The translations under genes were made by a program, and so were the position numbers. The notes beneath the pieces are model-generated. The model saw nothing but the letters and a program-made list of their open reading frames with translations, was not told the DNA's origin and did not search any database. Below are positions 1,430 through 8,785 of a stretch of DNA of 8,785 nt, piece by piece. This DNA is from a virus (taxonomy: Duplodnaviria; Heunggongvirae; Uroviricota; Caudoviricetes), in the IMG/VR virus record IMGVR_UViG_2778261571_000014, positions 1 to 8,785 of that record; one strand, written 5' to 3'. Position 1 is the stretch's first letter; each line of letters starts with the position of its first letter.

Positions 1430-1759
1430 CTATTTAATTCTCTTTTCAATGGCTGCAATTATTGCTTTTCCTGATGTTTCAGGAGATTTTGTAGCCATAT
1501 AAGACGAAAAAATCATGTCGGTCATTCTTTCATAACTTACTATTTCCCACTTAGCCAATGCATGGGACAGTTTGTAGTTGTCATCAGTTAGTGCCCTTAT
1601 GGAATTTTTTAAGTGTTTATTCTCTTCTGTTAATCGCGCAATTTTTGTATCAATTTCATGTGAGCGATCTAATTCCTTAACCTGTTTCTTGAGGGCAGCT
1701 AACCCTGCATATAGTACGCAACAGGATATCCCAAGAGCGAGTACGACTATTTCTAACAC
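1430..1759 (-). CDS. Small membrane protein (N-terminal TM helix plus coiled-coil-like region); candidate superinfection-exclusion or accessory protein
   Basis: Track ORF 1430..1975(-). Preferred start is the in-frame GTG at 1759-1757, preceded by AAGGAGG (1770-1764) with 4-nt spacing. The product begins VLEIVVLALGISCCVLYAGLAAL (hydrophobic, about 22 aa) followed by a charged heptad-like segment (KKQVKELDRSHEIDTKIARLTEENKHLKNSIRAL). The upstream extension 1760-1975 is W/H/C/F-rich and overlaps the better-looking + gene 1790..2155. Sits where sieA lies in P22. Confidence 0.5.
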   Translation of the reverse strand: MLEIVVLALGISCCVLYAGLAALKKQVKELDRSHEIDTKIARLTEENKHLKNSIRALTDDNYKLSHALAKWEIVSYERMTDMIFSSYMATKSPETSGKAIIAAIEKRIK

Positions 1760-1789
1760 ACCAACCTCCTTAGTTTTTCGCAGGATACC

Positions 1790-2155
1790 ATGAAAAAAGT
1801 TAACATTGGAAACGTACCAAAAATGCTCGTTCCGCTCTTTGAGAGCGGTACAATTGTGTTTTGTAGAGACTTTCCAGAATGGCAACGCCTGCATCAAAAA
1901 CTTGGCGTTGACGTGCATGACTCGGACGCCAACGGAGCGTCTCATACAATGAGTAGCGAGAATGGTGTTTTGCATGTGATAGGCGTGTTCAATGGCAAAC
2001 TATCTACTATTGCCCATGAGTGCGCTCACATGGCATTCGATATCTGCTCAAGGGTAGGTGTTGATGTTGAACCAGGAAGAGCCAACGAGACTTACTGCTA
2101 CTTAATGAGCAGGCTTGTTGAGTTCTGCGAGCGACATATCAAAAAGCCGGAGTGA
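1790..2155 (+). CDS. Hypothetical 121-aa protein with an HExxH motif (possible small zincin / ImmA-IrrE(M78)-like metallopeptidase)
   Basis: ATG 1790 preceded by AGGA (1781-1784) with 5-nt spacing; stop TGA 2153-2155. The translation contains STIAHECAHMAF (HECAH encoded at 2015-2029), which resembles the xTxAHExxH signature of M78/ImmA-type peptidases. The function is inferred from the motif only. Confidence 0.55.
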   Translation: MKKVNIGNVPKMLVPLFESGTIVFCRDFPEWQRLHQKLGVDVHDSDANGASHTMSSENGVLHVIGVFNGKLSTIAHECAHMAFDICSRVGVDVEPGRANETYCYLMSRLVEFCERHIKKPE

Positions 2156-2168: not shown

Positions 2169-2348
2169 TTACTTTTTGCTGTCTGGAGTTCGCTTATCTA
2201 ATACCCAGCCATGACCTGGCTTTGTTGTTGGTGGAAGCCTTTCGTTGTCCTTGACGGTGGCAAAATTGTCTTTCTTACCGCCGCGCGGGCCAACTTCTTG
2301 GTATATTCCGCCGTTTTTTCCTGTGTTTTCACCTGGTTTTTTCGCCAT
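2169..2348 (-). CDS. Small 59-aa Gly/Lys-rich hypothetical protein
   Basis: Track ORF 2169..2363(-). Preferred start is the second ATG (2348-2346), preceded by GAGG with 6-nt spacing, giving MAKKPGENTGKNGGIYQEVGPRGGKKDNFATVKDNERLPPTTKPGHGWVLDKRTPDSKK. Low complexity, so coding status is uncertain. I have an unverified recollection that a 59-codon ORF occupies this position in P22. Confidence 0.4.
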   Translation of the reverse strand: MAKKPGENTGKNGGIYQEVGPRGGKKDNFATVKDNERLPPTTKPGHGWVLDKRTPDSKK

Positions 2349-2437
2349 GATATACCTCAACATGCACTCGTTATTGGGCGATTAAATATTGATCTCATTT
2401 TATGAGTAGTCAATATGGTCCAAAAAAGGCAAAAATT

Positions 2438-2465
2438 AACCCACCTTCAGGTGGGTTTTTTGTTT
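2438..2465. terminator. Bidirectional rho-independent terminator (AACCCACC-ttca-GGTGGGTT followed by TTTTGTTT)
   Basis: 8-bp stem 2438-2445 / 2450-2457, loop 2446-2449, T-run to 2465 on the + strand. On the minus strand the same stem is followed by AATTTTTGCCTTTTTT. The TGA stop of the minus-strand RHH gene (2449-2447) lies in the loop. Confidence 0.6.
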
Positions 2466-2767
2466 AGCAGTTCTCTCAACTTTTCGTTCTGCTCTCTGAA
2501 CTTTTCCTGTATTTCTTTTTGCATGGCGATAACCTGGGCTTGAAGTTGAACTAGCGCATCAACATTTAGCGGAACCGAGACGCTGTTGATTTTATCTGCT
2601 ATTTCCCCGAGTGTATTTTCTGCATTCAAGGCATCTTCCAGTATCTGAACAATCTCTGAGTTCATTGATCTGCCGTTACGTTTGGCTCGTTCAGCTATAG
2701 CATCCCGCATTCCTGCAGGAAGCCTGATATTGAACCTATCCATTTCATGACTAGGGAACTTGCTCAT
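2447..2767 (-). CDS. Ribbon-helix-helix (Arc/Mnt-family) repressor, 106 aa, with a C-terminal coiled-coil-like extension
   Basis: ATG 2767-2765 preceded by GAGG with 4-nt spacing; stop TGA 2449-2447. The N-terminus DRFNIRLPAGMRDAIAERAKRNGRSMNSEIVQILEDAL matches the Arc/Mnt beta-strand and helix signature (FN.R.P ... NGRS.NSE) recalled from P22 Arc and Mnt. It is divergent from the arc-like gene, which is the Mnt position in P22 immI. Confidence 0.75.
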   Translation of the reverse strand: MSKFPSHEMDRFNIRLPAGMRDAIAERAKRNGRSMNSEIVQILEDALNAENTLGEIADKINSVSVPLNVDALVQLQAQVIAMQKEIQEKFREQNEKLRELLNKKPT

Positions 2768-2803
2768 ATGACCTCAACGTAAAGATGTTCGCTAAACAAT
2801 AGC

Positions 2804-2866
2804 ACCAACTTGACATCAAAATAAATGGTGTTAAATTGGTTCTAGAACCAAGTTGGTATCATTATA
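2804..2866. promoter_or_regulatory. Divergent control region of the immI-like locus: rightward Pant-like promoter plus palindromic operator candidates
   Basis: Seen directly: -35 TTGACA (2810-2815), 16-bp spacer, extended -10 TGtTAAATT (TG 2829-2830, hexamer 2832-2837). A perfect 16-bp palindrome TTGGTTCTAGAACCAA (2836-2851) overlaps the -10 and predicted start. A 9-bp inverted repeat ACCAACTTG (2804-2812) / CAAGTTGGT (2849-2857) flanks it. A perfect TATAAT on the minus strand (2866-2861) is a candidate leftward -10 but has no good -35. Confidence 0.5.
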
Positions 2867-2878
2867 GGAGGATTACTT

Positions 2879-3052
2879 ATGAAAGATGTGCTTTACACAG
2901 GTCGTAAAAGTCAAAGTTTTCAGCTTCGTTTGCCAGCGCGAATGAAGGAGGAGATTAGACGTGTTGCTGAAATGGATGGAATTTCTATCAACTCTGCGAT
3001 TGTGCAGCGACTGGCTAAAAGCCTGAGAGAGGAAAGAGCTAATGCCCAGTAA
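2879..3052 (+). CDS. arc: Arc-like ribbon-helix-helix repressor, 57 aa (absent from the supplied ORF track, presumably below its length cutoff)
   Basis: ATG 2879 preceded by AGGAGG (2866-2871) with 7-nt spacing; stop TAA 3050-3052. Translation MKDVLYTGRKSQSFQLRLPARMKEEIRRVAEMDGISINSAIVQRLAKSLREERANAQ aligns by eye with P22 Arc (…QFNLRWPREV…AEENGRSVNSEIYQRV…). It lies between the divergent RHH gene and the antirepressor gene, as arc does in P22. Confidence 0.75.
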   Translation: MKDVLYTGRKSQSFQLRLPARMKEEIRRVAEMDGISINSAIVQRLAKSLREERANAQ

Positions 3053-3125
3053 AAATAGTGAAGCCCAGCAGTGCGCGAACACAAACTGGGCCTCTATGTC
3101 AGTAACCGTATGCAAGGAAACTAAC

Positions 3126-3752
3126 ATGAATATTGTAGCAAAATCAGATTACAACTTCCACGGAGTTGAGTTGGTGCCCACCCGTGATATGCATGGTGTT
3201 TGGTTTACATCATCTAATATTGCATCTGCACTTAAATACGCAAATAGTCGTGCAGTAACAATGATTTATAACAAGTATAGCGATGAGTTTAGCGCCGGAA
3301 TGACTCAGGTACTCGAAGTGAGTACCTCAGGAAATTATCGCAAAAAAGTGCGAGTTTTCTCACTACGCGGTGCCCACCTAATCGCGATGTTTGCTCGCAC
3401 TCCGGTAGCCAAAGAGTTTCGCCGCTGGGTGCTGGATATTTTGGATCGGCAGGCAGAATGCTCACCGATTGCAAAACAGTTTACTGACGAAGAACTGGTT
3501 AATCTCTGCTACTTACAATTGTGGATGGAGAAGAGTCAACAAATGTGCAAACACATCTACCCAGGAATGAAGCAAATTGGTTCTGAGCTTTCAGGAAGAA
3601 TTTACGATATTGCATATGAGACTCGCTATATGTCAGAAGAAACCAAGAAATCACTTCTTCGTGAAATGAAGAATCTTGATACCAACAATTTTGTCGTAAA
3701 GAACGCTCAGCCAATGCTGACAAAACTGCGCGGCGAGGAATGGATTCATTGA
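3126..3752 (+). CDS. Phage antirepressor, Bro-N/AntA-type N-terminal domain
   Basis: Track ORF 3042..3752. Preferred start is ATG 3126, preceded by AAGGAAA with 5-nt spacing. The recognisable domain (NFHGVELVPTRDMHGVWFTSSNIASALKY … VRVFSLRGAHLIAMFARTPVAKEFRRWVLDIL) begins about 10 aa after it and matches the Bro-N/AntA pattern (F.F…WF…A..L… ending …A..F..WV). The alternative ATG 3042 overlaps the arc stop by 11 nt and cannot be excluded. Stop TGA 3750-3752. Confidence 0.7.
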   Translation: MNIVAKSDYNFHGVELVPTRDMHGVWFTSSNIASALKYANSRAVTMIYNKYSDEFSAGMTQVLEVSTSGNYRKKVRVFSLRGAHLIAMFARTPVAKEFRRWVLDILDRQAECSPIAKQFTDEELVNLCYLQLWMEKSQQMCKHIYPGMKQIGSELSGRIYDIAYETRYMSEETKKSLLREMKNLDTNNFVVKNAQPMLTKLRGEEWIH

Positions 3753-3781
3753 TTGGTGCGCCGGACGGCGCAAAAAGAAAA

Positions 3782-3802
3782 CCGCCAGTGTGCTGCTGGC
3801 GG
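3782..3802 (-). terminator. Terminator-like GC-rich hairpin on the minus strand (CCGCCAG-7 nt-CTGGCGG followed by TTTTCTTTTT)
   Basis: 7-bp stem 3782-3788 / 3796-3802. On the minus strand it is followed by a T-tract (complement of the A-run 3772-3780); on the + strand no T-tract follows. A second short hairpin GCGCC-ggac-GGCGC lies at 3758-3771. No minus-strand gene is evident upstream of it. Confidence 0.3.
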
Positions 3803-3840
3803 CCTATGTCACACCCTTACTACCACATAAGGAATGCCTA

Positions 3841-4566
3841 ATGACTTTGAAGAATGTAGCAAACATCGGATCCGTTGTCACGGATAAAACCATTGACAGC
3901 CAAAGTCTTCTGATGATGGTTAATGAAGCTCGCAAGTTATGTGGAGAGCCATCAGTACGTAACAACAAATTCATCGAGAAAATTGAGGATGAATTGGAGG
4001 GCGAGACCTACACAAAAAGTGTAGGTCGGAAAAACGGGGCTGACATTGATGTTATCTCCATGACTATCAAGCAGGCGCTTCGTGTTGCTGCTCGCGAATC
4101 TAAAGCAGTTCGCCGAACACTTGTAGACAAACTTGAAAGTATGCAGGAAGCACACATTAAAAGCGGTAAATCAGCGAGTGGACTTGTTGAGTATCGTCAA
4201 GCGCGAACATTGAAAATGACGGTTGAAGCTGTTACCAATCTGTTCGATCTGATGCCAAATCTTGCGCCTGAGGCAAAGCAGACAGCGGCAGCAAGTATAA
4301 TCAACCCGCTCGTTGGTTTTAATGCAATACCTCTTCCGGCAATAGAAGAGCATTACTACTCAGCAGGGGAGGTTGCAGAGCAGCTTGGAGTAACGGCCAA
4401 CAAGATTGGTCGTATTGCTAACGCAAACAACCTCAAAACTGAGCAGTACGGGAAGTTCTTCCTAGATAAATCGGCGCATTCCAGCAAACAGGTAGAGGCG
4501 TTCCGTTACAATTCTGAAGGCGTTAAAGCACTACAACACCTGCTACATGGCTCAAATGTGGCGTAA
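3841..4566 (+). CDS. Second antirepressor-like / phage regulatory protein (Rha- or KilAC-like features), 241 aa
   Basis: Track ORF 3790..4566. Preferred start is ATG 3841, preceded by AAGGAA with 6-nt spacing; the 3790 start would place the GC hairpin in coding sequence and lacks an RBS. Stop TAA 4564-4566. The C-terminal segment SAGEVAEQLGVTANKIGRIANANNL looks like a helix-turn-helix. Family assignment is from memory of antirepressor C-terminal domains and is tentative. Confidence 0.55.
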   Translation: MTLKNVANIGSVVTDKTIDSQSLLMMVNEARKLCGEPSVRNNKFIEKIEDELEGETYTKSVGRKNGADIDVISMTIKQALRVAARESKAVRRTLVDKLESMQEAHIKSGKSASGLVEYRQARTLKMTVEAVTNLFDLMPNLAPEAKQTAAASIINPLVGFNAIPLPAIEEHYYSAGEVAEQLGVTANKIGRIANANNLKTEQYGKFFLDKSAHSSKQVEAFRYNSEGVKALQHLLHGSNVA

Positions 4567-4982: not shown

Positions 4983-6896
4983 ATGACAGATTCAATAAAT
5001 GCCAATGTTGTAGTAAGCATGCCTTCTCAACTCTTCACTATGGCTCGTTCTTTTAAAGCCGTAGCCAATGGCAAAATTTATATCGGTAAAATTGACACGG
5101 ACCCGGTAAATCCTGAAAACCAGATTCAGGTTTATGTGGAGAACGAAGATGGTTCTCACGTTCCTGTTTCGCAACCAATCATCATTAACGCTGCTGGATA
5201 TCCGGTATATAACGGACAGATTGCTAAGTTCGTAACTGTGCAAGGCCATTCTATGGCTGTTTATGATGCGTATGGTGCACAGCAGTTCAATTTTCCAAAC
5301 GTGCTGAAGTATGATCCTGATCAGTTTCGTCAGGAACTGGCAGGTAATAGTGGTGCGTCACAGATTGGTTCCTCATCAGGAAATACTGTTCAACAAGAAA
5401 TAGATCGTCTAAATAAATTTGGTTATGCTTATGGTGTTAGATTAAGCGCGTATATGCATGAAAGCGACCCCTTAACAAGCGCCCTGACTGCATCACGGGA
5501 AAAAAGACTACCACTTGTCATTGATTGTGATGCGACATATAAAACTTTAGTGGTTTACAGTAATGACAGAATAATTGGCTGCGGTGATCATACATTAACA
5601 AAATCCGGTAATGATAAGCCATCCATTCCACCGGCACAACAACCAGAACGCCCTTCTGGTTCGATGACTAATTTTAGTGAAATTGATGCAGGTATCGTTA
5701 TTGTTCACCCTGACAATGGGTCGGCAACCAATATTATTATTTCAGGGTTTAACCTCGCGACTAACTCACATTGCGACTATGCGATACATTGCTCTTTCAT
5801 GTCTTTTACAAAAATAGAAGATATGAAGTTCAACGGGTACAAGCGTGGGATTAAATGGTACACCGCCTATGGAAATCAGCTATCCAGAATATTTTCACTT
5901 TACTACTATTCTGTCACTGATGTTTTTTCAGACTATATTTGCTACGATTTTTCTGACGGTAACTACCCATCAGGCACATCAAATACCCTAACAAACGTAA
6001 CATGCACCAACTATAAGAAATGCTATTACGTAGCAAATCTAAACTACTCTACATTTACCAATTGTGGTGGTGAAGGAGTAGAGTCACCAACACCAGTATC
6101 CACAGGAAACATCCCACAGACCTTCGAGTTTGTCAATTGCCCTAATATTGTCCTGAATACACCATATACTGAGAATTTAAGGGGTGGATTTATAAGGGCA
6201 GTTAGTGATGCATCCGGGGTGTATCAAGGTGCCGCAACTATGGTCATCAATGGGCCAGAGGCGGTCGTGGGTATCACAGGCACCACTACCAATGTTGGCG
6301 CTAAGCTTCTGGACATTCAGGGAGGAGTTAACTGTGTGATAAACGGTGGATACATGACAGGTGCTGCAAGTGGGTATTTCCTTGAGTTTGGTGGGGCATC
6401 GGATGACGCAACCCTTACGATAATAGGGATGGAAATGCGCAACGTATTAGAACAAATACGAAACCATCCTGGATATAACGGAATTAACTCTATAAAAGGG
6501 TTAAGGCCTATGCAGTTACTTCGTAAAGGGATTGGAGATGCGACCGGGACCGGGATAGTAAACTGGAAAACAGCTGCCGAAGACCAGTATTTTATGGGCG
6601 GGGGAAATTTCACTAAAACAATACTTGGTGGATTTTATAAGATAGAAATTACGTTACCCATAGGATCTTCCGCATCAGGCGGAGAAGTTCAACTCTTGCT
6701 GTCAGATACGGATACAGACAATGGAGTTATAATTTCACAATGCTATGTTCCTCCAGTGTCAAGCGGTAAGTTTACTGCCTCCATAAGCTACGAGGGTAGA
6801 TTGCCAGGTGGAAAGTTTCTTTATGTAAAAACTAATAATGCCAATTGGTCATCTGGATACGATCCAGACTCAATATTTAATGTTGTTCTGAAATAA
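4983..6896 (+). CDS. Tailspike protein (P22 gp9-like N-terminal head-binding domain; divergent C-terminal receptor-binding domain), 637 aa
   Basis: ATG 4983 preceded by GGAG with 8-nt spacing; stop TAA 6894-6896. The first ~113 aa ([12 protein letters not shown]…[21 protein letters not shown]…ENEDGSHV…[12 protein letters not shown]…VLKYDPDQ) closely match the P22 tailspike N-terminus as recalled. The rest is Gly/Thr/Asn/Ser-rich, consistent with a beta-rich receptor-binding domain, and is not recognisably P22-like. Confidence 0.9.
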
Positions 6897-7284
6897 CAAT
6901 ATTTATAATGATGCACGCAAAGCTTTGTACTGGATTGCAAGGCTTTGCGCTATACGATAGTGGCTAAGGTGGGTCACTCTACCTTCTCATCAATCCAGTC
7001 CGCCCACCATTGCATCATTTCTCTGCGCTTAACGTAGCGGATGCCTCACTATCACACGGTGATGGTTCATTACTGGTTTGCAGAATGGATAGAGAACTGA
7101 GGATAAAAGATATCCCAAAACCCCAAAATCTCATCTTTAGGATTTGCAGAAAGGTAGGCGTGAACAGATACCTACGCATGAAGACGGGACTAGCTCAGAT
7201 GTGATATTTGTGGTGATCACATACATCATCAACGATGCTCGTTATGGTGAGTTTGATGACTACCCGCTGAAGTGAAAATTGTGT

Positions 7285-7308
7285 TGTGTACCAAATTGCG
7301 TACCAAAC
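7285..7308. repeat. Tandem 12-bp direct repeat (TGTGTACCAAAT / TGCGTACCAAAC) in the prophage-host junction region
   Basis: Two adjacent 12-mers identical at 10 of 12 positions; the core GTACCAAA occurs at 7288-7295 and 7300-7307. Function unknown; could be a protein-binding site or an att-proximal arm-type site. Confidence 0.3.
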
Positions 7309-7618
7309 TAAAATCACAAATCATGAAACCCTTGTTCATGGCGGTTCTCAGGGGTGTTTCGCGTAATCGTGAAACAAAAAGGTAGATTGTTGCTTACCGT
7401 CATTCATCATTAGGTTAAATCCGTTATTTCTGCTGTCTGCCAGAGTATCAAATATCACCGTGCTAATCAGCTTTAGCGCCACAATTTGGCAGCGAGTGGC
7501 AACAGATCATGTCAGATAAAAATGAGAGGGTAGTCACATTTTCTTGCACTTTATTCCAGCCAGTTCATAAGTATTTCCGTAAAAAGAACAGCTATTTGAA
7601 ACTCCTGAGGGTTTGCTG

Positions 7619-8785
7619 TTGAAACGCCGTCTTATTATTGCTGCTTCTTTGTTCGTTTTTAACTTATCGTCTGGTTTTGCGGCGGAAAACATTCCTTTTT
7701 CACCTCAGCCTCCAGAGATTCATGCCGGGTCCTGGGTATTGATGGATTACACCACCAGTCAGATCCTCACCGCGGTTAATGAGCATCAACAGCGCAATCC
7801 CGCCAGCCTGACAAAGCTGATGACGGGTTATGTCGTGGATCGCGCTATCGATAGTCATCGCATTACGCCAGACGATATTGTCACCGTGGGGCGCGATGCG
7901 TGGGCGAAAGATAATCCGGTGTTTGTCGGTTCTTCACTGATGTTTTTGAAAGAGGGCGATCGCGTATCGGTACGTGATTTAAGCCGTGGTTTAATTGTGG
8001 ATTCCGGAAATGACGCTTGTGTTGCTCTGGCTGACTATATTGCCGGTGGGCAACGGCAGTTTGTTGAAATGATGAACAACTATGCCGAGAAGCTGCATCT
8101 CAAGGATACGCATTTTGAAACAGTGCATGGTCTGGATGCACCTGGCCAGCATAGCTCGGCTTATGATTTAGCTGTGCTTTCTCGCGCTATCATCCACGGC
8201 GAGCCCGAGTTTTATCATATGTACAGTGAGAAAAGTCTCACCTGGAACGGTATCACCCAGCAAAACCGTAACGGGTTGTTGTGGGATAAAACCATGAATG
8301 TTGACGGCCTGAAAACGGGTCATACTTCTGGTGCCGGGTTTAATCTCATTGCTTCGGCTGTAGATGGGCAGCGTCGTCTCATTGCAGTGGTAATGGGGGC
8401 TGACAGTGCAAAAGGTCGTGAGGAAGAGGCAAGAAAATTACTGCGTTGGGGGCAACAAAACTTTACTACGGTGCAAATTTTGCACCGTGGGAAAAAGGTC
8501 GGAACGGAACGCATCTGGTATGGCGATAAAGAAAATATCGACCTGGGAACGGAACAAGAGTTCTGGATGGTGCTACCGAAAGCCGAAATTCCACATATCA
8601 AAGCCAAATATACCCTTGATGGTAAAGAGCTCACCGCGCCAATTAGCGCCCATCAGCGGGTAGGGGAAATTGAACTTTACGACCGTGATAAACAGGTGGC
8701 GCACTGGCCGCTGGTTACCCTGGAATCTGTCGGGGAAGGCGGCATGTTTTCCCGCCTGAGTGATTATTTCCACCATAAGGCCTGA
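7619..8785 (+). CDS. dacD: D-alanyl-D-alanine carboxypeptidase DacD (penicillin-binding protein 6b), host gene
   Basis: The translation carries the three class-A PBP active-site motifs: SxxK (NPASLTKLMT), SGN (VDSGNDA) and KTG (GLKTGHT), behind a signal-peptide-like N-terminus (RRLIIAASLFVFNLSSGFA). It matches E. coli DacD as I recall it. Preferred start is TTG 7619, with GAGG (7607-7610) 8 nt upstream, giving the 388-aa MKRRLII… protein; the track's TTG 7613 has only 2-nt spacing. Stop TGA 8783-8785. Confidence 0.9.
   Translation: MKRRLIIAASLFVFNLSSGFAAENIPFSPQPPEIHAGSWVLMDYTTSQILTAVNEHQQRNPASLTKLMTGYVVDRAIDSHRITPDDIVTVGRDAWAKDNPVFVGSSLMFLKEGDRVSVRDLSRGLIVDSGNDACVALADYIAGGQRQFVEMMNNYAEKLHLKDTHFETVHGLDAPGQHSSAYDLAVLSRAIIHGEPEFYHMYSEKSLTWNGITQQNRNGLLWDKTMNVDGLKTGHTSGAGFNLIASAVDGQRRLIAVVMGADSAKGREEEARKLLRWGQQNFTTVQILHRGKKVGTERIWYGDKENIDLGTEQEFWMVLPKAEIPHIKAKYTLDGKELTAPISAHQRVGEIELYDRDKQVAHWPLVTLESVGEGGMFSRLSDYFHHKA

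Follow-up and report, generated by a model that had tools for sequence, protein, structure and literature searches.

A P22-like prophage almost certainly ends beside dacD in a type-2851 attR within sbcB

The interval between the tailspike gene of a P22-like prophage and the host gene dacD (positions 6897-7618 of the window, i.e., of the whole 8,785-nucleotide stretch of DNA analyzed here) is almost certainly the attR of that prophage, laid out as P arm, core, and B' and formed when a tyrosine integrase recombined the phage with its specific target, the 5' end of the host exonuclease I gene sbcB (att site 'type 2851'). The junction is already known as the sbcB attachment site of phage 2851, Sf101, and many Shiga-toxin phages, and the attR described here is a standard member of this type-2851 family. 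The original prediction had placed the prophage-host junction within this interval, where we indeed find it, at a core occupying 7362-7374. Instead of the atypical site or rearrangement that it had proposed, we see the att site in sbcB that the 2851-type integrase canonically uses, whose 13-bp core has been published. The features of the junction and its flanks are as follows.

4983-6896, plus strand: tailspike gene, with no further intact prophage gene between it and the junction (Pfam Head_binding PF09008, E = 3e-64, residues 4-114; a tailspike in related prophages)
6909-7361, plus strand: P arm of the type-2851 attP, retained in attR; a module common to the P22-like and lambda-like phages that integrate in sbcB
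6917-6948, plus strand: conserved hairpin with a 13-bp stem and a 6-nt loop, holding the palindrome CAAAGCTTTG; left boundary of the shared module
6974-7030, minus strand: fossil 3' end of an IntS/Sf6-type integrase, 18 codons plus stop, KRREMMQWWADWIDEKVE and stop, found by tblastn
7025-7275, plus strand: humD/umuD-like (S24 peptidase) pseudogene, with the first 45 codons missing, one frameshift near 7105, and one in-frame stop
7286-7295 and 7298-7307, plus strand: two direct GYGTACCARA copies (the tandem 12-bp repeat), candidates for arm-type integrase-binding sites in the P arm
7362-7374, plus strand: attR core CGTAATCGTGAAA, the crossover region and exact prophage-host junction, present as a single copy in the window
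7348-7410, minus strand: orphaned sbcB 5' end, native codons 1-16 (7410-7363) and then phage DNA, giving MMNDGKQQSTFLFHDYAKHP and a stop (six-frame translation, in-frame extension)
7411-7618, no strand assigned: sbcB-dacD divergent intergenic region, 208 bp of native host DNA with 100% identity to prophage-free E. coli
7619-8785, plus strand: host gene dacD (Pfam Peptidase_S11, E = 2e-103, and PBP5_C; dacD in all matching genomes)

Correct annotation is the main value of this assignment: attR with its core at 7362-7374, an sbcB 5' fragment, a humD pseudogene, and an integrase fragment are labels that replace unexplained intergenic DNA or a hypothetical-protein call.

The junction with the host chromosome

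To locate the host boundary, we compared 6800-7700 by megablast with 5,426 complete E. coli genomes, almost all of which match. Among the matches listed, prophage-free genomes, K-12 BW25113 included, align only from query base 563 onward, which corresponds to position 7362 of the window. From there to 7700 the sequence is 100% identical to prophage-free E. coli including BW25113, with many empty-site matches at 100%. Only 7362-7618 of the interval thus aligns to the empty site, so the possibility raised in the original prediction, that the entire interval is native DNA upstream of dacD, does not apply. The stretch that matches K-12 takes in dacD and the 208-bp spacer and extends 49 bases into the start of the divergent sbcB, which bears out the original statement that dacD and sbcB are divergent neighbors in K-12. 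Native homology begins at 7362, and not at the dacD promoter, because sbcB codons 1-16 lie on the minus strand at 7410-7363. These codons had been overlooked in the statement that the interval contains no convincing gene, which otherwise stands, as no intact gene is present. From 7410 the minus strand encodes MMNDGKQQSTFLFHDY, followed by the foreign residues AKHP and a stop; K-12 sbcB starts with MMNDGKQQSTFLFHDYETFG, and native SbcB goes on with ETFGTHP. As the sbcB reading frame breaks into foreign sequence, the junction falls in codons 13-17 of the sbcB coding sequence rather than in the spacer that separates sbcB from dacD. Everything to the right of the core, i.e., sbcB codons 1-16, the spacer, and dacD, is native chromosome. 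The conserved sbcB stretch presumably holds the catalytic Asp15 of ExoI, which we take to be of the DEDD family, with Glu17 just past the core.

When attB, attP, attL, and attR are aligned, their arms swap in textbook fashion around an invariant 13-bp block. This block, CGTAATCGTGAAA, is the sole one identical in attB (K-12), attP (mEp234 and Sf101), attL (Z30), and attR (the window, Z30, and phage 1717). PMC4159516 gives the same 13 bp, citing Strauch et al. (2008), as the attP core common to Sf101 and phage 2851, and sbcB is listed with yehV, argW, and wrbA as one of the four key loci at which Stx prophages insert in O157 (PMC8309913). The core is annotated 'duplication due to insertion' in the phage 1717 record, and the mEp234 and HK544 records carry the annotation 'prophage attachment site (type 2851)'. 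A by-eye search for core-type inverted repeats around the core could define none and gave only weak direct AAGGT-like repeats. We also looked for a tRNA-based att site of the thrW/argW type. ARAGORN returned zero tRNA or tmRNA genes in the window, an Rfam search of 6500-8000 at E ≤ 1 gave only two chance-level matches, neither of them to a tRNA or tmRNA, so that with either program the junction shows no such gene and no 3' fragment of one. The absence of tRNA-like sequence and the view that the attachment site is not tRNA-based, both part of the original prediction, are therefore upheld, and the conventional explanation by a tRNA or tmRNA fragment falls away.

The junction is a frequent one. 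At least 80% of 6800-7700 is carried by 419 of the 5,426 complete E. coli genomes and the attL junction by 582 of them, and about 8-11% of complete E. coli genomes have a prophage junction at the sbcB site. The exact prophage of the window has no match in this set of 5,426. Strain Z30 carries a whole P22-like prophage in the order sbcB, attL, int ... tailspike, attR, dacD. In the genome studied here, attL and the integrase fall beyond the 8.8-kb window; both are seen in the analogous Z30 prophage, and an intact cognate int and a matching direct repeat would be expected for this genome too when read across from relatives such as Z30.

The P arm and its gene remnants

The stretch from 6909 to 7361 is the phage P arm and is present in every phage with this integration module. 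In blastn searches of 6897-7420 against phage genomes, the segment from 6909 or 6914 to 7391 showed 91-93% identity to the free phages mEp234, Sf101, E212, and EC.P3 and to phages 2851 and 1717, and the P arm is 95-97% identical to that of other sbcB prophages. Averaged over all pairs, identity reaches 100% within the core, 94% in the block between the arm sites and the core, and 85% across the humD pseudogene block, which is the least conserved part of the arm and contains indels, with a 67-column gap in the Z30 row. The interval looks gene-poor because the arm is composed of att-site DNA and two dead gene fragments, the IntS-type integrase 3' end and the humD-like pseudogene. A sigma-70 promoter scan of 6800-7700 gave only one weak promoter-like site, inside dacD.

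The tandem 12-bp repeat reported at 7285-7308 was recovered by repeat search, and its motif, GYGTACCARA, occurs in two copies in the window against 0.04 expected by chance (0.03-0.04 per locus). In the attP of the free phages mEp234, Sf101, and HK140, exactly two copies are found in the P arm and three in the P' arm just upstream of int, and in the Z30 prophage three copies lie at attL and two at attR, with no further copy in 49.5 kb. The same short motif is thus repeated in both attP arms, away from the core, as in lambda-like arm-type sites. This distribution of two plus three copies over both arms is a lambda-like signature, which argues that GYGTACCARA belongs to the att-site machinery and makes the copies about 55-75 bp to the left of the core putative arm-type Int sites, as judged from their sequence and placement. 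No site matching the IHF consensus WATCARNNNNTTR occurs anywhere in the window. By analogy with the family, Int, an adjacent HTH_17 excisionase-like protein, and host bending factors would bring attL and attR together in a synapse at their arm and core sites. The two P-arm and three P'-arm copies would enable this attL-attR synapsis for excision, and excision of the prophage would regenerate native sbcB.

At the left boundary of the module, the palindrome CAAAGCTTTG at 6918-6927 and the inverted repeat around it (6916-6923/6942-6949) are both present as originally described, and repeat search extends the arms of the inverted repeat to 12 nt (6916-6927/6938-6949). Folded as plus-strand RNA, the 13-bp stem has an energy of -22.7 kcal/mol (z = -3.6), and none of 200 shuffled sequences folds as well. 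About 43 bp containing the hairpin are also found 3' of the tail-fiber genes in HK446, mEp213, mEp043, and ECP1, which have other, unrelated integrase types. A Rho-independent terminator was not detected, as no T-run follows the stem on either strand and a terminator scan of 6800-7700 was negative. The hairpin may nevertheless be a transcript-end or stability element, though one that lacks a U-tract.

The integrase remnant next to the hairpin matches the HK633 integrase with 91% identity over 22 aa (tblastn, E = 4e-13) and that of vB_EcoP-683R2 with 95% over 19 aligned positions (18 codons plus stop), and the DNA homology to these IntS-type phages covers 6914-7034. The IntS-type att site is not retained, and the last 18 integrase codons alone survive. 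A separate candidate, in which the fossil is a duplicate of the phage's own int, was ruled out by the lack of similarity to the mEp234 (2851-type) integrase. The succession of tailspike, hairpin, and opposite-strand integrase 3' end mimics the tailspike-attP-int layout of vB_EcoP-683R2 and HK633, and one could read the fragment as what is left of a second integrative element, largely lost by deletion, that sits in tandem with the P22-like prophage on its dacD side. We regard this as very unlikely: just 18 integrase codons are left and run straight into the humD fragment, free lambda-like and P22-like phages package this identical fusion in their genomes, and the window has a single core, with no second core or host DNA before the 2851-type P arm. 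The best reading of the fragment is that of an old scar, left in the phage lineage when one module replaced another. The hairpin and the 18-codon integrase tail would mark where an IntS-type module gave way to a 2851-type int-attP module, the exchange falling within the final codons of the earlier int, and P22-like and lambda-like phages alike would later have acquired the scar together with the module.

The second remnant was traced by tblastn with the intact HK140 gp28 (129 aa), of which residues 46-73 match in one frame and about residues 73-129 in another (E = 7e-19). An intact HumD/UmuD-like frame over the whole domain was not found, the match starting only at residue 46 and being split over two frames, and PGAP annotates the equivalent stretch of strain EC38 as a 'HumD family translesion DNA polymerase' pseudogene. 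ORF 7010-7204, for which the original prediction saw no recognizable product, does exist, and it does so because it is one frame of this frameshifted, 5'-truncated pseudogene. It is correspondingly improbable, to a degree that leaves little room for it, that the interval encodes a small functional protein (from ORF 7010-7204 or from the minus-strand equivalent of Sf101 orf17) or a small RNA. ORFs of 40-64 aa are present on both strands, Sf101 has an 82-aa hypothetical protein annotated here, and transcription from the native sbcB promoter presumably still enters the arm; however, the plus-strand ORF is a pseudogene frame, the Sf101 orf17 frame is broken in the window, leaving minus-strand ORFs of only 54 and 40 aa, relatives differ by indels up to the gap seen in Z30, and Rfam gave no match.

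Both dead fragments are already present in free phage genomes and so came with the module rather than being made at this locus. An illegitimate rearrangement or deletion scar that placed the end of a P22-like prophage beside dacD, with no site-specific att, is barely credible even though remains of two genes resemble rearrangement debris, since the same fragments occur in the same order in free phages mEp234, Sf101, E212, and EC.P3 and are therefore older than the integration, the host break coincides exactly with the published 13-bp core, and the junction is common to hundreds of independent genomes.

Comparison with known attachment sites

The attR of the Stx2c phage 2851 and of the Stx2-converting phage 1717 (E. 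coli O157:H7) has the identical 13-bp core at the same sbcB position beside dacD and a P arm that, between 6909 and the core, is about 92-93% identical to that of the window. These are, in contrast, lambda-like long-tailed Stx phages in which the P arm follows effector or tail-fiber genes, whereas the module of the window starts 12 bp after a P22-type tailspike gene. The closest relative overall is the Shigella flexneri serotype-converting phage Sf101 (P22-like, Lederbergvirus), which likewise combines a P22-like virion module with a 2851-type int-attP module. Sf101 differs in carrying the O-acetyltransferase gene oacB between tailspike and arm, where the window has no conversion gene, and the receptor-binding domains of the two tailspikes are unrelated.

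The attP of HK140 and HK544 shares the integrase type, the core, and the arm repeats. HK140, unlike the window, keeps its 129-aa UmuD-like gene (gp28) intact, with the gene's end close to the arm sites on their outer side, and has no IntS fragment. An intact humD gene without the integrase scar suggests that HK140 represents the ancestral layout of the arm, which has decayed in the window. With lambda attP/attR (P1, P2/P'1-P'3, 15-bp core) the site shares a short core of identity, a long asymmetric P arm, and a motif present twice in P and three times in P'. The integrase and the motif are, however, unrelated in sequence to those of lambda, the target here lies inside a protein-coding gene, the window has no IHF consensus, and the arm sites are putative, being proposed from sequence. 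The 2851-type layout also differs from lambda in that transcription of int leads away from attP and the P' repeats lie upstream of the gene. A single integration module, consisting of hairpin, integrase scar, humD remnant, arm sites, core, and int, has thus spread between P22-like and lambda-like phages, Stx phages included.

The sbcB start in lysogens and the neighboring phage genes

The P' arm of the type-2851 attP, which lies outside the window, encodes a surrogate sbcB N terminus, MTDTDKQPTFLFHDY (positions 6039-6084 of the Z30 attL locus, L008, and 3453-3498 of the mEp234 attP locus, L004). Its TFLF codons differ from those of the host only synonymously, and PGAP annotates a complete 474-aa sbcB at the Z30 attL. 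In these related genomes, the surrogate start in the P' arm means that lysogens retain a full-length sbcB ORF, and integration does not simply destroy the gene. A simple sigma-70 and terminator scan of the Z30 attL P' arm found no promoter for the chimeric sbcB. It is tempting to speculate, although we consider it rather doubtful, that ExoI in the lysogen is expressed from phage signals that share the int upstream region with three putative arm-type Int sites, which could couple ExoI levels to the state of the prophage, while the native sbcB promoter at attR would fire into the P arm, antisense to the end of the late operon. The attR junction itself leaves current understanding unchallenged. 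The surrogate sbcB start is the only feature here that may lack a formal description; no mention of it was found in the literature examined.

Farther to the left in the window, ORFs 1430-1975 (minus strand), 1790-2155, and 2169-2363 (minus strand) match only PHROGs of unknown function. They are followed by an immI-like region at 2447-4566 with three genes.

2447-2767, minus strand: Arc-family repressor of the immI-like region
3042-3752: antirepressor-like gene with Bro-N and P22_AR_C domains
3790-4566: antirepressor-like gene, consecutive with the preceding one, matching phrog_1726

The tailspike encoded next to attR has an ordinary N-terminal head-binding domain. Its residues 117-637 (5331-6893, plus strand) are 84.8% identical at the protein level to the tailspikes of the ~157-kb Salmonella phages BSP101, Se-E, and heyday, which we take to be Kuttervirus (Vi01-like) phages. 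The DNA of this receptor-binding part has matches in only two of the 5,426 complete E. coli genomes, with 27% coverage at 82%. It looks as if a podovirus prophage and large Salmonella phages had exchanged a receptor module in this tailspike.
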